Part shown: positions 593 through 36,546 of the stretch, piece after piece | How positions within the stretch are numbered: the first letter of the stretch is position 1 | How the letters are laid out: every line of letters begins with the position of its first letter | Notes under the pieces: model-generated | The model's database searches: none | What the model was told of the DNA's origin: nothing | Seen by the model: only the letters and a program-made list of their open reading frames with translations | NCBI GenBank assembly: GCA_041660025.1 | Contig: JBAZXD010000002.1 | Span: 68,635 to 132,634, forward strand | DNA length: 64,000 nt | Direction of reading: 5' to 3' | DNA from: Minisyncoccota bacterium | GTDB taxonomy: Bacteria > Patescibacteriota > Minisyncoccia > Phycocordibacterales > Phycocordibacteraceae | Made by a program: the position numbers and the translations under genes

Positions 593-1603
593 ATGGCTAT
601 CCGCGTCGCTATTAACGGTTTCGGGAGGATCGGCAGGGCGTTCGCGCGCCGTTCACACGGACGCGATATTGAGATCGTTGCGGTAAATGACCTCGGTTCG
701 CTCGACAATCTCGCGTACCTGCTCAAGTACGACACGGTGTACGGCCGAGCGCCGTTTACGGTCGAGACAAGAGACGGCGCACTCATCATTGATGGGAAGG
801 AAGTGAAATTCTTTTCGGAGAAGGATCCGGGCGCTCTGCCCTGGAAGGACTTAGCGGTAGACGTCGTCGTGGAGAGCACCGGATTTTTTACGAACTATGA
901 AAAGGCGCAGGTGCACATCACGGCGGGCGCGCGGCGCGTGGTCATTACCGCGCCGGTGAAGGAGGAGTCGAACCTCGGTGCGACGGTGCTTGTGGGTCTC
1001 AATGAGGAAAAGCTCGCGACCTGTTCGATATCCAGCAACGCGTCCTGCACCACGAACTCGGCGAGCCCGGTCATCGCTATTCTCGACGAGGTGATCGGTA
1101 TCGAGAAGGCTGTTCTCTCCACGACGCACGCCTACACCGCTTCGCAATCCCTCGTCGACGGTCCGTCGAGAAAGGATAAGAAGGAGGGCAGAGCGGCGGC
1201 GCAGAACATCGTACCGACGACCACCGGCGCCGCGATAGCGGTTACGGAGGCGTATCCGCAACTCACAGGAAAGTTCGACGGTATATCGCTTCGCGTGCCG
1301 GTAGTCGCGGGCTCCATCGCGGATATCACTTTCGTTGCCAAGCGTCCGACGACTGCCGAGGAGGTGAACGAGCTGTTGCGCAGTGGCGCGAAGGCAGCCC
1401 GCTGGGAGGGCATCTTCACGACGACGGACGAAGAATTGGTCTCGAGCGACATCGTCGGCGAACCGTATGCTTCTATCGCCGATCTCGGAATGACACGCGT
1501 GGTCGACGGTACCTTGGTAAAGGTTCTCGCTTGGTACGACAACGAGATGGGGTATACGGAGAGCCTCGTCCGCCATGTGATCGCCGCGTCCAAAGCTCCA
1601 TGA
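593..1603 (+). CDS. gap: glyceraldehyde-3-phosphate dehydrogenase
   Basis: N-terminus 'MAIRVAINGFGRIGR' is the Rossmann NAD motif. Active site 'SNASCTTNSASP' is present. Start chosen at ATG 593 rather than the upstream ORF-track start at 515. The stop TGA overlaps the rpiB start (ATGA). Confidence 0.93.
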   Translation: MAIRVAINGFGRIGRAFARRSHGRDIEIVAVNDLGSLDNLAYLLKYDTVYGRAPFTVETRDGALIIDGKEVKFFSEKDPGALPWKDLAVDVVVESTGFFTNYEKAQVHITAGARRVVITAPVKEESNLGATVLVGLNEEKLATCSISSNASCTTNSASPVIAILDEVIGIEKAVLSTTHAYTASQSLVDGPSRKDKKEGRAAAQNIVPTTTGAAIAVTEAYPQLTGKFDGISLRVPVVAGSIADITFVAKRPTTAEEVNELLRSGAKAARWEGIFTTTDEELVSSDIVGEPYASIADLGMTRVVDGTLVKVLAWYDNEMGYTESLVRHVIAASKAP

Positions 1604-3688: not shown

Positions 3689-4667
3689 TCAAGACGCAAA
3701 ATTGGCCGAAAACATATTTGCGGACGACGTACCGCAGGCGCCGACGCGCGACGGCTTCGGGAAAGGAACGGTGGAGGCGGGGAAGGCCGATACGCGCGTG
3801 GTGGTGCTCTGCGCCGACCTCGCCGAGAGCACGCGCGCCGAGTGGTTCCAGAAAGAATTTCCCGAGCGCTACGTCGAGATGGGCGTCGCCGAGCAAAATA
3901 TGGCAGCCGTCGCCGCCGGTATGGCAGAGGCGGGGAAGATACCGTTCATCGCAAGCTACGCGGCATTCTCGCCGGGCCGCAATTACGAGCAGATCCGCAC
4001 AAGCATTGCGCTCAACCGACAGCCGGTCAAGGTGTGCGGGATGCACGCCGGCGTCTCCGTCGGCCCTGACGGCGCGACACACCAGATGCTCGAGGATATC
4101 GGGATGATGCGTATGCTCCCGGGGATGACGGTCATCGCTCCTGGAGACAGCGAGGAGGCACGCAAAGCGGTCGTCGCCGCCGCGAAAACGGACGGGCCGG
4201 TGTATCTTCGCTTCGGCCGTGCGGCGACGCCGGTCTTCACGACGAGCGAGACGCCGTTTCAGATAGGGAAGGCGCTCGTGCTCTGGGAATCGGAAAAGCC
4301 GCAAGTCGCGATACTCTCGACCGGTTCTCTAAGCTATGCCGCGCTTGTCGCGGCCCGCGCGCTCGCCGAAAGCGGTATCGAGAGCATCGTACTCCACGTG
4401 CCGACCATAAAGCCACTCGACGAGGCGGCAGTACTCGAGGTGGCGAAGCGCGCGGGCCGCGTCATTACCGTCGAAGAACACCAGGCCGCCGGCGGCTTCG
4501 GGAGCGCCGTGGTGGAATTCCTTTCCGAGCACCACCCGGTGCCCGTGCGACGGCTCGGCGTGCAGGACCAGTTCGGCCAGTCGGGTACTCCCGAAGAACT
4601 TTTAAAACACTACGAGCTCGACGCTCTCCACATCACAGAGGCTGCCCATGCGTGCATTCATATATGA
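3681..4667 (+). CDS. tkt: transketolase, C-terminal (Pyr + C-terminal domain) subunit
   Basis: 'TRDGFGKGTVEAGKADTRVVVLCADLAESTRAEWFQKEFPERYVEMGVAEQNMAAVAAGMA' is present, and the ORF overlaps the N-terminal subunit gene by 8 nt. Confidence 0.9.
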   Translation: MLNQDAKLAENIFADDVPQAPTRDGFGKGTVEAGKADTRVVVLCADLAESTRAEWFQKEFPERYVEMGVAEQNMAAVAAGMAEAGKIPFIASYAAFSPGRNYEQIRTSIALNRQPVKVCGMHAGVSVGPDGATHQMLEDIGMMRMLPGMTVIAPGDSEEARKAVVAAAKTDGPVYLRFGRAATPVFTTSETPFQIGKALVLWESEKPQVAILSTGSLSYAALVAARALAESGIESIVLHVPTIKPLDEAAVLEVAKRAGRVITVEEHQAAGGFGSAVVEFLSEHHPVPVRRLGVQDQFGQSGTPEELLKHYELDALHITEAAHACIHI

Positions 4668-4855: not shown

Positions 4856-5839
4856 TTAGAGCGTACGAACGGCGTACGAAGAGGGTGCGTCGTCGAGATA
4901 TTGTTCCAGTGCATTACGCGTGAGCAGGCTTTTCTGCGCGCCGACTTCCTGCACGACCGACATAGCATTTACCGGCCCCCAGAGAAGCGCTTCAGCAAGC
5001 GACTTTCCGAGTGCAAGTGCGGCGACGAACGTTGAAGTTGTCGCGTCGCCCGCGCCCGTGCGGTCGATCGGCGGCGAAGCATCCGGATACATCGGTACCT
5101 TGAGCGTTTCTGTGCCGTCGGAGGCGTATGCGCCGTTTCGTCCGTCGGTAATGAGCACGATCTTCGGGCCGAGCGCGCGCATCTTTTCCAGCAATGTTCG
5201 TATATCCGTCTCGCCGAGCTCCAAGATGCGCTGTGCCTCCTCTTTATTTACGGCGACGACCTCTGTCGCGGCGTAGAGCGCAGCGAGCTTCTCTTTGCCC
5301 ATCTGTATCTGGAACGTGCCGGGCTGGAAGGCAAGCTTCGTCTCGGGATGCTCGTTAAGCCACGCGACCAGCTCGCTGTGGAGCGCTTCGGCACCCTCGC
5401 CGGTCGAGGAGAGATAGAGCCACTTCGGTGCTTTAAAGCCGCTCGGAATGAGGTACGGATATGCTTCGTGCCGGATGAGGATGGTGCGCTCGGCTTCGTA
5501 CCAGAGTACGTAATGATGATTTGTCGGAATGCCGTCGTTCACGGCAACATACGTCGTATCGATACCTTCTCGGGAGAAAGTCGCAAGGATCTCTTCTCCA
5601 TACCGGTCCTTCCCGACGTTTGAGATGAATCCAGAGGAGAGGCCGAGGCGCGCGGCGGCGACTGCGGCGTTCGCCGCATTGCCTACACCCGGCACGAGGA
5701 TGGAGGCATCGTAGGGTATCTTATCGCCCCACCGCATCGAGATGGTGCAATTCTGGTTGTTGATGTCGCAGGTGACGCGCGCGTCCTTAAGCTTGATGAA
5801 CTCGTCAACAGTAGTGTCGCCGATAGCCACAAAATCCAT
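4856..5839 (-). CDS. PfkB-family carbohydrate/ribo-kinase
   Basis: Ribokinase-like motifs 'VPGVGNAANAAVAAARLG' and C-terminal 'DRTGAGDATTSTFVAALALG' (the GAGD anion-hole/ATP motif). Confidence 0.8.
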   Translation of the reverse strand: MDFVAIGDTTVDEFIKLKDARVTCDINNQNCTISMRWGDKIPYDASILVPGVGNAANAAVAAARLGLSSGFISNVGKDRYGEEILATFSREGIDTTYVAVNDGIPTNHHYVLWYEAERTILIRHEAYPYLIPSGFKAPKWLYLSSTGEGAEALHSELVAWLNEHPETKLAFQPGTFQIQMGKEKLAALYAATEVVAVNKEEAQRILELGETDIRTLLEKMRALGPKIVLITDGRNGAYASDGTETLKVPMYPDASPPIDRTGAGDATTSTFVAALALGKSLAEALLWGPVNAMSVVQEVGAQKSLLTRNALEQYLDDAPSSYAVRTL

Positions 5840-33845: not shown

Positions 33846-34331
33846 ATGTTGATGATTCGTTTCCAGCGCATCGGCCGGACCAATGATCCGGCGTTTCGCA
33901 TTGTCGTCCTCGAGAAGGAGCGCGCGGCGAAGGCCGGTAATATCGTCGAACTCCTCGGCACCTACAACCCGCGGAGCAAGGCGCTCACGCTGAACGAGGA
34001 GAGCGTAAAGGGCTGGATGGCCAAGGGTGCCCAGCCGACGGACTCCATTCGCAACCTCCTTATCAATAAGAAAGTCATCGAAGGGAAGAAAGTGAACGCG
34101 CTCCCGAAGAGGACGCCGCAGAAGAATGAGGCGAAAATAGCGGCCGAAGCGGCAGCAGCCGAGGCAGCGAAAGTGGCCGCAGCAGCGGCGAAGGCGGAAG
34201 CAGAGGTTCCGGCAGAAGTAGAAGCTCCGACCGAGGCAGAAGTCGCCGCGGAAGCCGAGCCGGCTGTTGAGGAAGCGCCCGCAGAAGTTCCGGTAGTCGA
34301 AGAGACTCCCGCCGAAACTCCGGCAGCCTAA
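33846..34331 (+). CDS. rpsP: 30S ribosomal protein S16 with an Ala/Glu/Pro-rich C-terminal extension
   Basis: 'MIRFQRIGRTNDPAFRIVVLEKERAAKAGNIVELLGTYNP' is S16. It is followed by about 70 aa 'AAEAAAAEAAKVAAAAAKAEAEVPAEVEAPTEAEV...'. Confidence 0.85.
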   Translation: MLMIRFQRIGRTNDPAFRIVVLEKERAAKAGNIVELLGTYNPRSKALTLNEESVKGWMAKGAQPTDSIRNLLINKKVIEGKKVNALPKRTPQKNEAKIAAEAAAAEAAKVAAAAAKAEAEVPAEVEAPTEAEVAAEAEPAVEEAPAEVPVVEETPAETPAA

Positions 34332-34750: not shown

Positions 34751-35407
34751 ATGAAATTCCATCTCATTACATTGTTTCAAGACGCGTGCGACGCGTATTT
34801 AAGCGCGTCTATCATCGGGCGCGCGCGGAAGGAAAAAAAGATTACAATAAAATACCAGAACCCCCGCGACTTCGTCGCGGGACCGGCGGGGAGCTATAAG
34901 AAGGTGGACGAGCGCCCGTACGGCGGTGGCCCGGGAATGGTGATGTCAGCCATGCCTGTCATCAAAGCCGTGGAGAAAGCGCTGAAAGGGAAGAAGGCGA
35001 AACCCGTCATCATCTGGTTCAGCCCGGGAGGGAAGCAGTTTACGAATAAAGACGCCGACGCGCTCGCGAAATACAGCGACGTGGTGCTCGTGTGCGGTCG
35101 GTACGAGGGCATAGACGAACGCGCGAAGAAGATATTAAAGACGCTCGCGTCGGTGAAAGAGTTTGCCGTGGGCGAAGCCGTGTACACGGGCGGGGAAGTC
35201 CCGGCGCTCGCGATAGTAGACGCCGTCACGCGCCGTCTGCCCGGCGTCCTCGGCAAGGACGCTTCCATAGAGGAGCGCCGCATCGCCTCTTCTGCCGTCT
35301 ATACCCGCCCCGAAACCATTTTGTATAAAAAGAAGAAGTATCGCGTCCCGAAGGTTCTCCAAACCGGCCATCACGCCAAGATAGATGCATGGAGGGAGAA
35401 ACAGTGA
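34751..35407 (+). CDS. trmD: tRNA (guanine37-N1)-methyltransferase
   Basis: SPOUT fold 'YGGGPGMVMSAMPVIKAVEKAL', 'VCGRYEGIDERA' and a C-terminal 'VLQTGHHAKIDAWREKQ' (cf. TrmD 'VLLSGNHAEIRRWR'). Confidence 0.88.
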   Translation: MKFHLITLFQDACDAYLSASIIGRARKEKKITIKYQNPRDFVAGPAGSYKKVDERPYGGGPGMVMSAMPVIKAVEKALKGKKAKPVIIWFSPGGKQFTNKDADALAKYSDVVLVCGRYEGIDERAKKILKTLASVKEFAVGEAVYTGGEVPALAIVDAVTRRLPGVLGKDASIEERRIASSAVYTRPETILYKKKKYRVPKVLQTGHHAKIDAWREKQ

Positions 35408-35735
35408 TACGCTTGATACGTGCAAATTTGATAAGGAGATAATTGTGAAGATAGAGTTCTTTACGAACCCCGCGGCGTTGAAAGTCGGAAGTCTCGTCGC
35501 CGGGCCATCGGCACTAACAGACATACGGTTGTTCGGCATGATTGGCACGCCGCTCTACGAGATCACCGAAATCGTTAATCGGCGCGTTCTGTGGGTCAAG
35601 ATGCACTACGCCAAACTCCGCCGCTTGTCTGACGGGGAAGTGCTCAAAATCGACCTGAACTCGCCCAGCGATTTCTTCGCGCGATCTACACCAACGGACC
35701 TGCGAGAAAATTGGGCACAAATCAACCCAATCTGA
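35385..35735 (+). CDS. hypothetical protein in an AT-rich insert downstream of trmD
   Basis: 116-aa ORF; a GTG at about 35446 is a more plausible start ('VKIEFFTNPAALKVG...'). No family recognised. It is in the same frame as the duplicated trmD tail at 35790..35849. Confidence 0.35.
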   Translation: MHGGRNSDTLDTCKFDKEIIVKIEFFTNPAALKVGSLVAGPSALTDIRLFGMIGTPLYEITEIVNRRVLWVKMHYAKLRRLSDGEVLKIDLNSPSDFFARSTPTDLRENWAQINPI

Positions 35736-35789
35736 TTTCCACCACCTCACGGCCACATTCGCCCCGTCCAAAACGGGGCTTTCCTTTAT

Positions 35790-35849
35790 CCAAAAGTCCT
35801 CCAAACCGGCCACCACGCAAACATTGACAAGTGGAGAGAAAAGAGGTAG
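35790..35849 (+). repeat. degenerate duplicate of the trmD 3' end (encodes 'PKVLQTGHHANIDKWREKR*')
   Basis: About 75% nt identity to 35348..35407 ('PKVLQTGHHAKIDAWREKQ*'), including an identical 14-mer CTCCAAACCGGCCA. The differences are largely synonymous. Confidence 0.65.
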
Positions 35850-35928
35850 CATAACTTCAACGTCGCTTGTTCTTTTCCCATCTTGGCAAGCAGGTTCGCG
35901 ACGTTACTGCGGGTCCAAGGAGAAATAA

Positions 35929-36309
35929 ATGAAGTTCCATACTGTCACTATCCCTCTAACTATGACACGGGCTGATGAAGTGAATCCGCATATGAGTGGT
36001 TTTGTGAACGAAGTGAGAAGGATGCGGATACAACGTAAGGCCCGGGTGTACCAAACTTATGTGAACGACGGCGACAAGAAATACGCATTCGTCACCACCT
36101 CCAAGGATTTGCATCTCGGTCTTGGCGAAATGACGAAAGAAGCACAAGTACTTCTGACCAAGCTTCTCGAGTACGAATTTGCCCGAGGAAACTTTGGGCA
36201 ACTGATACTTGGCATTCAGAAAGACGAAGGCGACGAATGCAACTATACGCTGGTTGCCATGTCGACGTATCTCGGTGAGATCAGTTTCGGATTCTCGCCT
36301 ACCCGCTAA
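35929..36309 (+). CDS. hypothetical protein (orphan ORF in an AT-rich region upstream of rpoB)
   Basis: 126-aa ORF 'MKFHTVTIPLTMTRADEVNPHMSGFVNEVRRMRIQRKARVYQTYVNDGDKKYAF...'. No family recognised. GC is lower than in the core genes. Confidence 0.45.
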   Translation: MKFHTVTIPLTMTRADEVNPHMSGFVNEVRRMRIQRKARVYQTYVNDGDKKYAFVTTSKDLHLGLGEMTKEAQVLLTKLLEYEFARGNFGQLILGIQKDEGDECNYTLVAMSTYLGEISFGFSPTR

Positions 36310-36546
36310 TCAACTAGAAACCGCGCCACTCCGGTATATGGGTGGTTTTTTGTTGTCCACACATGGGCTTGCGGGAAAAGGTGGGGGGTGGTAGGTTGGG
36401 GGAACAAGATACGACTGAGTAGCGGAGGGCGGGGCGACAGATTCATACGGGAACCGAAGAAAAACGCATAAGCGCAAGCGGATTTATTTCCGTGCGTTCG
36501 CATTTCTATATTTTGCTTTTTAATTAACAACCTCACGCCACGACTC

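Follow-up and report, generated by a model that had tools for sequence, protein, structure and literature searches.

This report deals with a gene end that occurs twice. In a contig of a Minisyncoccota bacterium (assembly GCA_041660025.1, contig JBAZXD010000002.1), of which a stretch of 64,000 nt was analysed as a whole (the window), the last codons of trmD return downstream of the gene, behind one small open reading frame (ORF-A) and ahead of another (ORF-B), which is followed by rpoB. The closest formal analogue lies at the 3' end of icd in Escherichia coli, where, as far as the account in PMC13626634 goes (Hill et al. 1989 cited there), the insertion of e14 or phage 21 restores the gene end and an icdC fragment is displaced. 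Compared with what that account describes, both loci have an insert that supplies a replacement 3' end, an essential gene that stays intact and an old end displaced downstream as a short fragment, and the two ends differ mainly by synonymous or conservative changes. However, e14 is described there as a prophage of 15 kb that brings its own integrase and uses a precise att core, whereas the insert at trmD has around 440 nt and one small gene, carries no recombinase and has junctions that are imprecise across loci. Furthermore, unlike the displaced end of icd, the displaced trmD tail keeps a role as the predicted promoter of the next gene. Regarding the marks of an integrative element, direct repeats of the gene's 3' end flank the insert and trmD is restored, but no tyrosine or serine integrase was found in the insert, whose single ORF had no family match; the 14-mer at the apparent crossover is identical in the two window copies, while the displaced tails of different loci start at various tail positions from 1 to 17, and one at 29.

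Chromosomal integration hotspots between core genes are filled by homologous recombination in their flanks. Work by Oliveira, Touchon and Rocha from 2017 is reportedly an example of this concept. The trmD locus is similar in that two conserved essential genes enclose a spacer that varies in close relatives, with breakpoints inside the flanks and no mobility genes. Nevertheless, it differs from the usual core-gene hotspots because the units are single genes of around 100 aa, the coding tail of the left arm doubles as the predicted promoter of the cargo, and alleles can stack. Homology-facilitated illegitimate recombination, which occurs during natural transformation in Acinetobacter and Streptococcus, uses one homologous anchor and a microhomology join of 3-8 nt. 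Such a process fits the junction TTATCCA-AAAGTC of the window, known here from sequence alone, although at trmD a join upstream of the anchor's end would give a duplication and not a deletion. In the orphan C-terminal modules of rhs and cdiA, a new gene end with its linked small gene displaces older ends downstream, and the resulting arrays of short repeated 3' fragments, each with a partner gene, are similar to ours. There, however, the variable C-terminus is a toxin and the partner its immunity gene, whereas the tail of trmD is conserved, and the genes that come with it have nothing to do with the function of TrmD.

The locus also resembles an integron, in that small genes in the same orientation, mostly of unassigned function and including toxin-antitoxin pairs, lie beside a fixed site, and in that hairpins are found at the cassette 3' ends in some relatives. 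An attC site has the structure R''-L''...L'-R' with RYYYAAC/GTTRRRY, and dif is a 28-bp dyad with two 11-bp arms and a 6-bp spacer. The trmD repeats, however, are gene tails with predicted promoters and not attC, and the window insert lacks the hairpin. We rejected an integron because neither intI nor attI was found beside the array in the window or among the relatives' neighbouring genes. The attC assignment was rejected as well, since the window insert ends in a plain terminator and the hairpins of the relatives have a GACC tetraloop without the GTTRRRY / R-L box consensus and are dispersed. An IMEX/dif module was discarded because inspection revealed no dyad symmetry around the 14-mer, and a diversity-generating retroelement because the differences between the copies involve all four bases and no ORF of the size of a reverse transcriptase is present in the spacer.

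We regard the case as a known phenomenon on a small scale and without an integrase; its predicted twist is that the tail of an essential gene also serves the accessory gene next to it as promoter. Our literature search found no report of trmD as an integration target.

The repeated trmD tail and the two genes behind it

For comparison, 160 trmD loci were fetched from metagenomes and GTDB genomes; the related ones are referred to by labels such as L006. The relatives are Candidatus Paceibacterota or Paceibacteria-like loci, and the synteny set comprised 55 loci with TrmD identities of 64-91%. The genes in the neighbourhood are rnr, rpsP, KH, trmD, rpoB and rpoC in the window and in its relatives, and Pfam confirmed rpsP, a KhpA-type KH gene and trmD.

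Codons 200-218 of trmD and the stop codon (35348..35407, copy 1) are repeated in the same orientation 442 nt downstream (35790..35849, copy 2), with 42 of 60 nt (70%) and 16 of 19 residues in common and the stop codon in register. The longest shared stretch is an identical 14-mer, CTCCAAACCGGCCA, at 35357..35370 and 35799..35812. When all the 60-mers of the window were compared on both strands, copy 2 was the only one with at least 32 matches to the tail (z around 8). Therefore, the duplication reported in the initial annotation is real and so is the 14-mer, although the identity of about 75% given there was too high. Between the copies, 10 codons have changed synonymously and 3 non-synonymously, with a non-synonymous divergence (dN) of 0.105 and a saturated synonymous divergence (dS) according to NG86, so that the changes are indeed mostly synonymous, as had been noticed. 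Because of this pattern we consider the copies orthologous trmD tails from different lineages; on this comparison they are xenologous, and neither a local duplication nor a decayed paralogue.

Outside the 60 nt there is no similarity on either side, and in a register comparison the resemblance to trmD upstream of 35790 was at chance level. A trmD paralogue or pseudogene, which the initial annotation had also suggested, was rejected because the similarity stops at the last 20 codons and the displaced copies of the relatives are equally short; nhmmer and tblastn returned tail-length copies only and no full-length second trmD. Copy 2 is not covered by any ORF bearing a start codon in the ORF list of the window.

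Copy 1 is the functional end of trmD and belongs to what we call the A-type, whereas copy 2 is K-type and contains a sigma-70-like promoter sequence. The arrangement TTGACA-17-TAnnnT is kept in the K/N-type tails of at least 15 loci, including those ahead of ORF-B in L006, L009 and L018, and the same layout recurs in many lineages, with the -35 element in codons I-D-K/N and the -10 element across the stop codon. From this conservation we infer promoter activity of the trmD tail. The homologues of ORF-B always follow a K-type tail (…ANIDKWR…) with the embedded promoter and the same 5' untranslated region (UTR), which is nearly identical in L006 (397-476), L009 (1719-1798) and L018 (about 4457-4534). 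This tail forms the end of trmD itself in L006, but is present as a displaced copy in the window, L009 and L018. Copy 2 runs directly into the ORF-B promoter and UTR, just as in the insert-free L006. The 8-bp hairpin of this UTR (AACGTCGC...GCGACGTT) encloses the palindrome CTTGGCAAG and may be a regulatory element for ORF-B.

ORF-A shows a comparable linkage to the other type of tail. Its homologues in L003 and L193 have the same A-type tail (…AKIDAWR…TGA) and a UTR homologous to that of the window upstream, ORF-A-family genes lie directly after trmD in L001, L193 and L194, and homologous terminators are found 3' of ORF-A in L001, L003 and L194. The family is small: a profile search of 1.84 billion cluster representatives gave 11 proteins, and the distant members are not beside trmD. 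Two homologues have 70% and 66% identity.

Both ORFs are identical to WC814_02755 and WC814_02760, on a 137-kb contig of a Candidatus Paceibacterota metagenome-assembled genome (MAG) at NCBI; this record is therefore not an independent assembly. The start codons of both public entries are probably wrong, judging from the conserved N-termini. ORF-A most likely starts at GTG 35445, 37 nt after the trmD stop codon, and not at ATG 35385, because AAGGAG lies just ahead of the GTG and the N-terminus MKIEFF is conserved in homologues, which begin MK(I/L)E. WC814_02755 is over-extended by 20 codons into the trmD tail, so that its MHGGRNSD... results from reading the tail in a different frame; P0009 shows this artefact too. 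The conserved N-terminus of ORF-B is MKFHTV and not the annotated Met12, which makes WC814_02760 11 codons too short. We attach no significance to the earlier remark that copy 2 is in frame with an ORF at 35385..35735.

The dN/dS ratios against homologues were 0.16-0.28 for ORF-A and 0.10-0.16 for ORF-B and, judged by these values, both are real genes under purifying selection. Neither had a significant match in Pfam, PHROGs or PADLOC, nor a phage or plasmid match by tblastn, and the AlphaFold2 models were too poor for a fold search (pLDDT 55 for ORF-A and 38 for ORF-B, from alignments three sequences deep). The earlier description of the two ORFs as orphans is only partly right, since each has a few homologues and evolves under purifying selection. 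The surrounding block is AT-richer, as had also been observed: the GC content of 35300..36400 is 0.47-0.50, compared with 0.58-0.64 in the flanks.

The right end of the insert reads TTTATCCA followed by AAAGTCCTCC, that is, TTATCCA joined to AAAGTC. The left partner is recognisable in L003, where TTATCCACA lies directly 3' of the ORF-A terminator and where the order is ORF-A terminator, TTTTATCCACA and rpoB leader; in most loci TTATCCACA starts the rpoB promoter region. In the minimal loci this TTATCC(A/C)CA box lies 2-4 nt after the trmD stop and is followed by the rpoB promoter and the leader. The right partner, CCAAAAGTC, is genuine trmD sequence (compare L012, L018 and L094). The only overlap of both partners is CCA (35790..35792), which therefore looks like a microhomology junction.

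The trmD-rpoB spacer in related genomes

In these 55 loci rpoB follows trmD, with gaps from 206 nt (L105, L023, L032 and L015) to 4492 nt. The initial annotation had taken the absence of rplS and rimM as a sign that an operon had been disrupted. They are indeed missing from the window, but within 5 kb of trmD they were found solely in distant non-Paceibacteria loci; their absence is clade-wide and therefore no operon was broken by the insertion.

The nearest relatives of the window on both flanks are L006, L010 and L049 (dS of 0.58-0.74 for trmD and 0.56-0.63 for rpoB). L006 carries ORF-B only, in the order trmD with the promoter-bearing tail, same UTR, ORF-B and rpoB. The spacer of L049 contains ORFs of 90 and 187 aa; in that of L010, a membrane protein of 257 aa is accompanied by an ORF of 148 aa. 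Except for ORF-B, which L006 has as well, the cargo of these three is wholly different from that of the window. The trmD genes of L006 and L049 have around 98-99% identity until the last 90 nt ahead of the stop codon, and the two loci are 98.8% identical over 3 kb exactly from the rpoB leader on, whereas the spacers in between are unrelated. This alignment is direct evidence that an allele was cleanly replaced through homologous exchange in the flanks, and that the tail of trmD moves together with the cargo.

Breakpoints within the flanking genes (for L006/L049, 90 nt from the trmD stop and where the rpoB leader begins; for the window, at the 14-nt core), conserved core flanks and divergent content in close relatives show the trmD-rpoB spacer of this Paceibacteria clade to be a recombination hotspot. 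No integrase-like ORF was apparent in the spacers of the relatives, including those with large gaps.

At least 12 related loci have one or two extra trmD tails, with differing cargo (Table 1). Together with the xenologous tails and the insert-free L006, they agree with the earlier proposal of an insertion or recombination at the trmD terminus. In-frame stops, indels and truncation mark the decay of the older displaced tails. Displaced tails have their left ends at tail positions 1, 2, 8, 8, 8, 8, 9, 10, 11, 13, 14, 15, 17, 17 and 29, so that 14 of the 15 keep the sequence from CCGGCC (positions 17-22) onward. In L012 and L093 the cores of the functional and the displaced tail differ.

Regarding the cargo, L009 has a SocA/Panacea-domain antitoxin with a 121-aa partner (691..1601). 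A recurrent pair consists of a DUF5674 protein and a protein of 94-100 aa with the motif FANLGADVSRCITAA, laid out like a toxin-antitoxin module (L012 5675..6312; L018 4095..4397 and 4946..5622; L044 about 750..1158); the small partner is also found alone or beside a truncated DUF5674 gene.

The relatives also contain palindromic elements of around 40 nt, with an outer stem of 8-16 bp, an internal loop, an inner stem of 2-5 bp and an invariant GACC tetraloop. Their outer stems fall into subtypes (TATCCTTATC, GTTCGTTAAC, TGTTCCATA, ATATCAAAAG, ATTCTTAT and TTGTTATC), and the inner stem covaries (A-T, C-G or T-A beside a constant C-G). They are often in tandem, in a conserved module of around 150 nt just upstream of displaced tails, but they also occur after rnr and ahead of the rpoB leader. 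They are absent from the window, whose insert lacks the hairpin motif ACGACCGT, and had no Rfam match. From their distribution they look like a dispersed repeat of these genomes, similar to repetitive extragenic palindromic (REP) elements.

Origin of the two units

Which of the two tails belongs to the resident genome can be judged from the closest relatives. The window trmD is similar to that of the relatives up to the core and different after it, where copy 1 departs from their tails, whereas copy 2 matches them in the discriminating segment N-I-D-K-W. Against the tail of L049, copy 2 has 89% identity, as has the gene body (88%), and copy 1 only 75%. Hence copy 2 is most likely the original tail of the resident genome. 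ORF-A has a dS of 0.57 between the window and L001, compared with 1.39 for trmD in the same pair, and on these values it has moved horizontally. As copy 2 is relative-like, ORF-B is shared with L006 and ORF-A is so much less diverged than trmD, ORF-A is probably the newcomer.

The CCA-only overlap, the imprecise boundaries elsewhere and the flank-mediated exchange lead us to a homologous crossover combined with a microhomology join. The alleles of the hotspot would be self-contained expression units, each made up of the final 40-90 nt of trmD, a small accessory gene that has a ribosome-binding site of its own, and a terminator; because the tail encodes the predicted promoter, it must travel with the gene it drives. 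The resident allele would consist of the K-type tail with its promoter and ORF-B, and the acquired unit of the A-type tail, ORF-A, its terminator and the opening bases of the rpoB-promoter box from the donor. At the left end, homologous recombination inside trmD would have switched at or beside the 14-nt core; at the right end, the incoming DNA would have been joined illegitimately to codon P199 of trmD through the 3-nt CCA. The process would be homology-facilitated illegitimate recombination, probably following DNA uptake, and it would have placed the donor allele in front of the resident one, the two being stacked head to tail. TrmD would remain intact with a foreign C-terminus, ORF-A would be transcribed by read-through from the rpsP-KH-trmD operon up to its own terminator, and the displaced 60-nt tail would persist untranslated because it carries the ORF-B promoter. 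The insert encodes no recombinase and no phage or plasmid relative of it was found. We give this stacking of two alleles of one hotspot about an even chance of being correct.

Some observations weigh against it. Most left boundaries of the displaced tails fall within a stretch of 17 nt that ends at CCGGCC, with few further on. This is not obviously expected of random illegitimate joins, although the range would become narrower if long direct repeats are unstable and the embedded promoter is selected for. The point at which native-like sequence gives way to foreign-like sequence in the window lies right at the only 14-nt identity block, very short for a RecA-type exchange. Furthermore, tails vary intrinsically, so that calling copy 2 native rests on around 15 discriminating bases and the synteny, and the dS of ORF-B between the window and L006 (1.76) exceeds that of the flanks (0.6-0.7).

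An alternative reading is dedicated site-specific recombination, in which a recombinase encoded in trans acts at the CCGGCC core and inserts circular, integrase-less mini-cassettes carrying a mimic of the trmD tail, each insertion shifting the older tails downstream by an integron- or IMEX-like logic. The identical 14-mer at both window junctions, where the sequence switch maps, the 14 of 15 displaced tails that start at or before position 17, the arrays of up to three tails with unrelated cargo (including the SocA/Panacea toxin-antitoxin pair and the DUF5674 pair), the ORF-less minimal insert of 135 nt in L093 and the structured hairpins 5-15 nt upstream of many displaced tails all speak for it. 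Nevertheless, no recombinase was found in or beside any array examined, the junctions are scattered over positions 1, 2, 8, 9, 10, 11, 13, 14, 15, 17 and 29, and the core lacks the dyad symmetry typical of recombinase core sites. In L093 and L012, where the cores differ, no identical core can have served in the exchange, and the breakpoint of L006/L049, 90 nt ahead of the stop codon, is not at the core. The hairpins are dispersed repeats, found for example after rnr in L091, and absent from the window insert; no viral contig with a trmD tail was found, the 23 viral matches to the core pattern being due to chance. We therefore regard a dedicated recombinase as unlikely, and the wider proposal of a dedicated platform for cassette capture in Paceibacteria, with the trmD tail both as its attachment site and as a built-in promoter, as a little more doubtful still.

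The order of arrival might also be the opposite of that in the stacking proposed above, with trmD, its A-type tail and ORF-A resident, and a partial trmD tail with ORF-B incoming; the homologous anchor of the incoming DNA would be the rpoB leader or rpoB, and its illegitimate join would lie at the TTATCCA box of the resident allele. The junction is equally compatible with either order, and both the position of ORF-A-family genes directly after trmD in three loci and the high dS of ORF-B would suit it. But L006, which belongs to the three closest relatives on both flanks, has ORF-B in common with the window and not ORF-A, the nearest homologue of ORF-A lies in a genome with a far more distant trmD, and copy 2 has body-like identity to the tail of the closest relative, which copy 1 has not. 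The reverse order thus seems improbable. An assembly artefact, either a chimeric join or a repeat-induced false duplication in this metagenome-assembled contig, is very unlikely. The exact arrangement is otherwise recorded only in the same MAG; however, the copies share at most 14 consecutive bases, below assembler k-mers, the phylogenies of both flanks are concordant, and the same architecture exists in independent assemblies from other sites, including L194. Least probable of all is a local tandem duplication or the remnant of a second trmD, which two like-oriented tails 442 nt apart might suggest: saturated synonymous sites with conserved residues require a long separate evolution as functional gene ends, trmD similarity is lacking upstream of 35790, and between the tails lies an unrelated gene, of which homologues exist elsewhere.

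Neighbouring features and biological meaning

Table 1. Positions of the features at the trmD-rpoB spacer in the window, with extra tails and palindromes of the related loci
Feature	Position or locus	Strand	Basis or remark
trmD, intact, 218 aa	34751..35407	+	Pfam tRNA_m1G_MT, E = 1.8e-35; 64-91% aa identity to trmD of related loci
Copy 1, functional A-type tail (PKVLQTGHHAKIDAWREKQ*), without embedded TTGACA promoter	35348..35407	+	Post-core part linked to ORF-A
14-nt core CTCCAAACCGGCCA in copy 1, apparent left crossover region	35357..35370	+	Sequence comparison
Ribosome-binding site of ORF-A, AAGGAG	35433..35438	+	6 nt ahead of GTG 35445
ORF-A, 96-aa accessory protein, probable cargo of the inserted unit	35445..35735	+	Homologues, dN/dS
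Intrinsic terminator of ORF-A, GCCCCGT-ccaaa-ACGGGGC then TTTCCTTTAT	35761..35789	+	Hairpin 35761..35779 and T-rich tract ending ...TTTATCCA
TTATCCA, apparent remnant of the TTATCC(A/C)CA box, fused to trmD codon P199	35786..35792	+	Box normally opens the rpoB promoter region
Copy 2, displaced non-translated K-type tail (PKVLQTGHHANIDKWREKR*)	35790..35849	+	Sequence comparison
Sigma-70-like promoter TTGACA-17-TAGCAT in copy 2, predicted for ORF-B	35824..35852	+	-10 overlaps old stop codon
ORF-B 5' UTR, 76 nt	35853..35928	+	Hairpin AACGTCGC...GCGACGTT; AAGGAG 35917..35922
ORF-B, 126-aa accessory protein	35929..36309	+	Homologues with 71% and 58% identity
Intrinsic terminator of ORF-B (alternatively delimited as 36325..36346)	36325..36352	+	Sequence
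rpoB promoter region: box variant TTGTCCACA, TTGCGG (36369..36374), 17-nt spacer, TAGGTT (36392..36397)	36353..36397	+	Alignment of 19 loci
Conserved rpoB 5' leader, around 143 nt, right homology arm of the hotspot	36404..36546	+	Alignment
Extra tail	L009		With SocA/Panacea antitoxin and 121-aa partner
Extra tail	L010		With 257-aa membrane protein
Extra tail	L012		With DUF5674 protein and 94-aa partner
Partial tail only	L013
Three tails in total	L018
Decayed tail	L044
Extra tail	L049		With 90-aa ORF
Three tails in total	L091
135-nt insert without ORF	L093
Truncated tail	L094
ORF-A-family gene, terminator, tail	L194		Independent analogue of the window
Tail fragment	L003-5		No trmD body upstream
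Palindromes	L002 493-577, 655-686; L003 17-56; L010 2017-2138; L012 6346-6461; L044 1188-1225
Palindromes	L049 6020-6062; L091 5813-5941; L093 1329-1372; L193 551-592
Palindromes	L091 1539; L100 5761	-

The rpoB leader (ACAAGATACGAGTGAGTA.GGAGGGC...GATTCATACGGGAAC...AACGCATAAGCGCAAGCGGATTTATTTCCGTGCGTTCGCATTT) is found at the same position in L003, L006, L010, L015, L049, L091 and other loci. A long-range helix is predicted in it, with weak covariation (3 of 17 pairs) and without an Rfam family, and the leader may be a cis-regulatory RNA of the rpoBC operon of the clade. The search of Rfam with the part of the window at 30-40 kb and with eight related loci gave no match, and as there is no tRNA at 28-46 kb of the window, a tRNA as the target was rejected.

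The TTATCC(A/C)CA box is a DnaA-box-like 9-mer, present in the window at 36353..36361 and 35786..35794 and conserved ahead of the rpoB -35 element, at a distance of around 7 nt. The same 9-mer is found again at the boundaries of spacer units in L003, L009 (twice), L044, L094 (twice), L193 and others, and could be a regulator-binding site or a mere marker of the flank. Matches to TTATCCACA with one mismatch are around three times enriched in the window (16 observed, 5.4 expected), without clustering. A replication origin was rejected, because the DnaA-box-like motifs are not clustered at the trmD-rpoB spacer and there is no skew switch. Upstream of trmD, the S16 protein (33846..34331) has a C-terminal extension of around 90 aa past the Pfam S16 domain, rich in Ala, Glu and Pro (AAEAAAAEAAKVAAAAAKAEAEVPAEVEAP...).

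The window comes from a group of tiny groundwater bacteria. If there were a dedicated recombinase, the locus would be a new type of cassette platform and a functional integron analogue in the Candidate Phyla Radiation (CPR): a trans-acting enzyme would insert tail mimic, gene and terminator or GACC hairpin at the CCGGCC core, and arrays of three or more units would form, each driven by the preceding displaced tail.

As regards the stacking of alleles that we prefer, two essential genes would serve as homology arms, and imperfect exchanges would leave stacked units marked by repeated tails. For annotation, this means that such a repeat is to be read as the footprint of a horizontal acquisition, and neither as a pseudogene nor as an assembly error. 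The repeated trmD tails are also a simple signature with which the accessory genes of Paceibacteria can be mined, including their toxin-antitoxin pairs. The locus shows, at the resolution of single genes, ultra-small CPR genomes gaining and shuffling accessory genes without visible mobile-element machinery.

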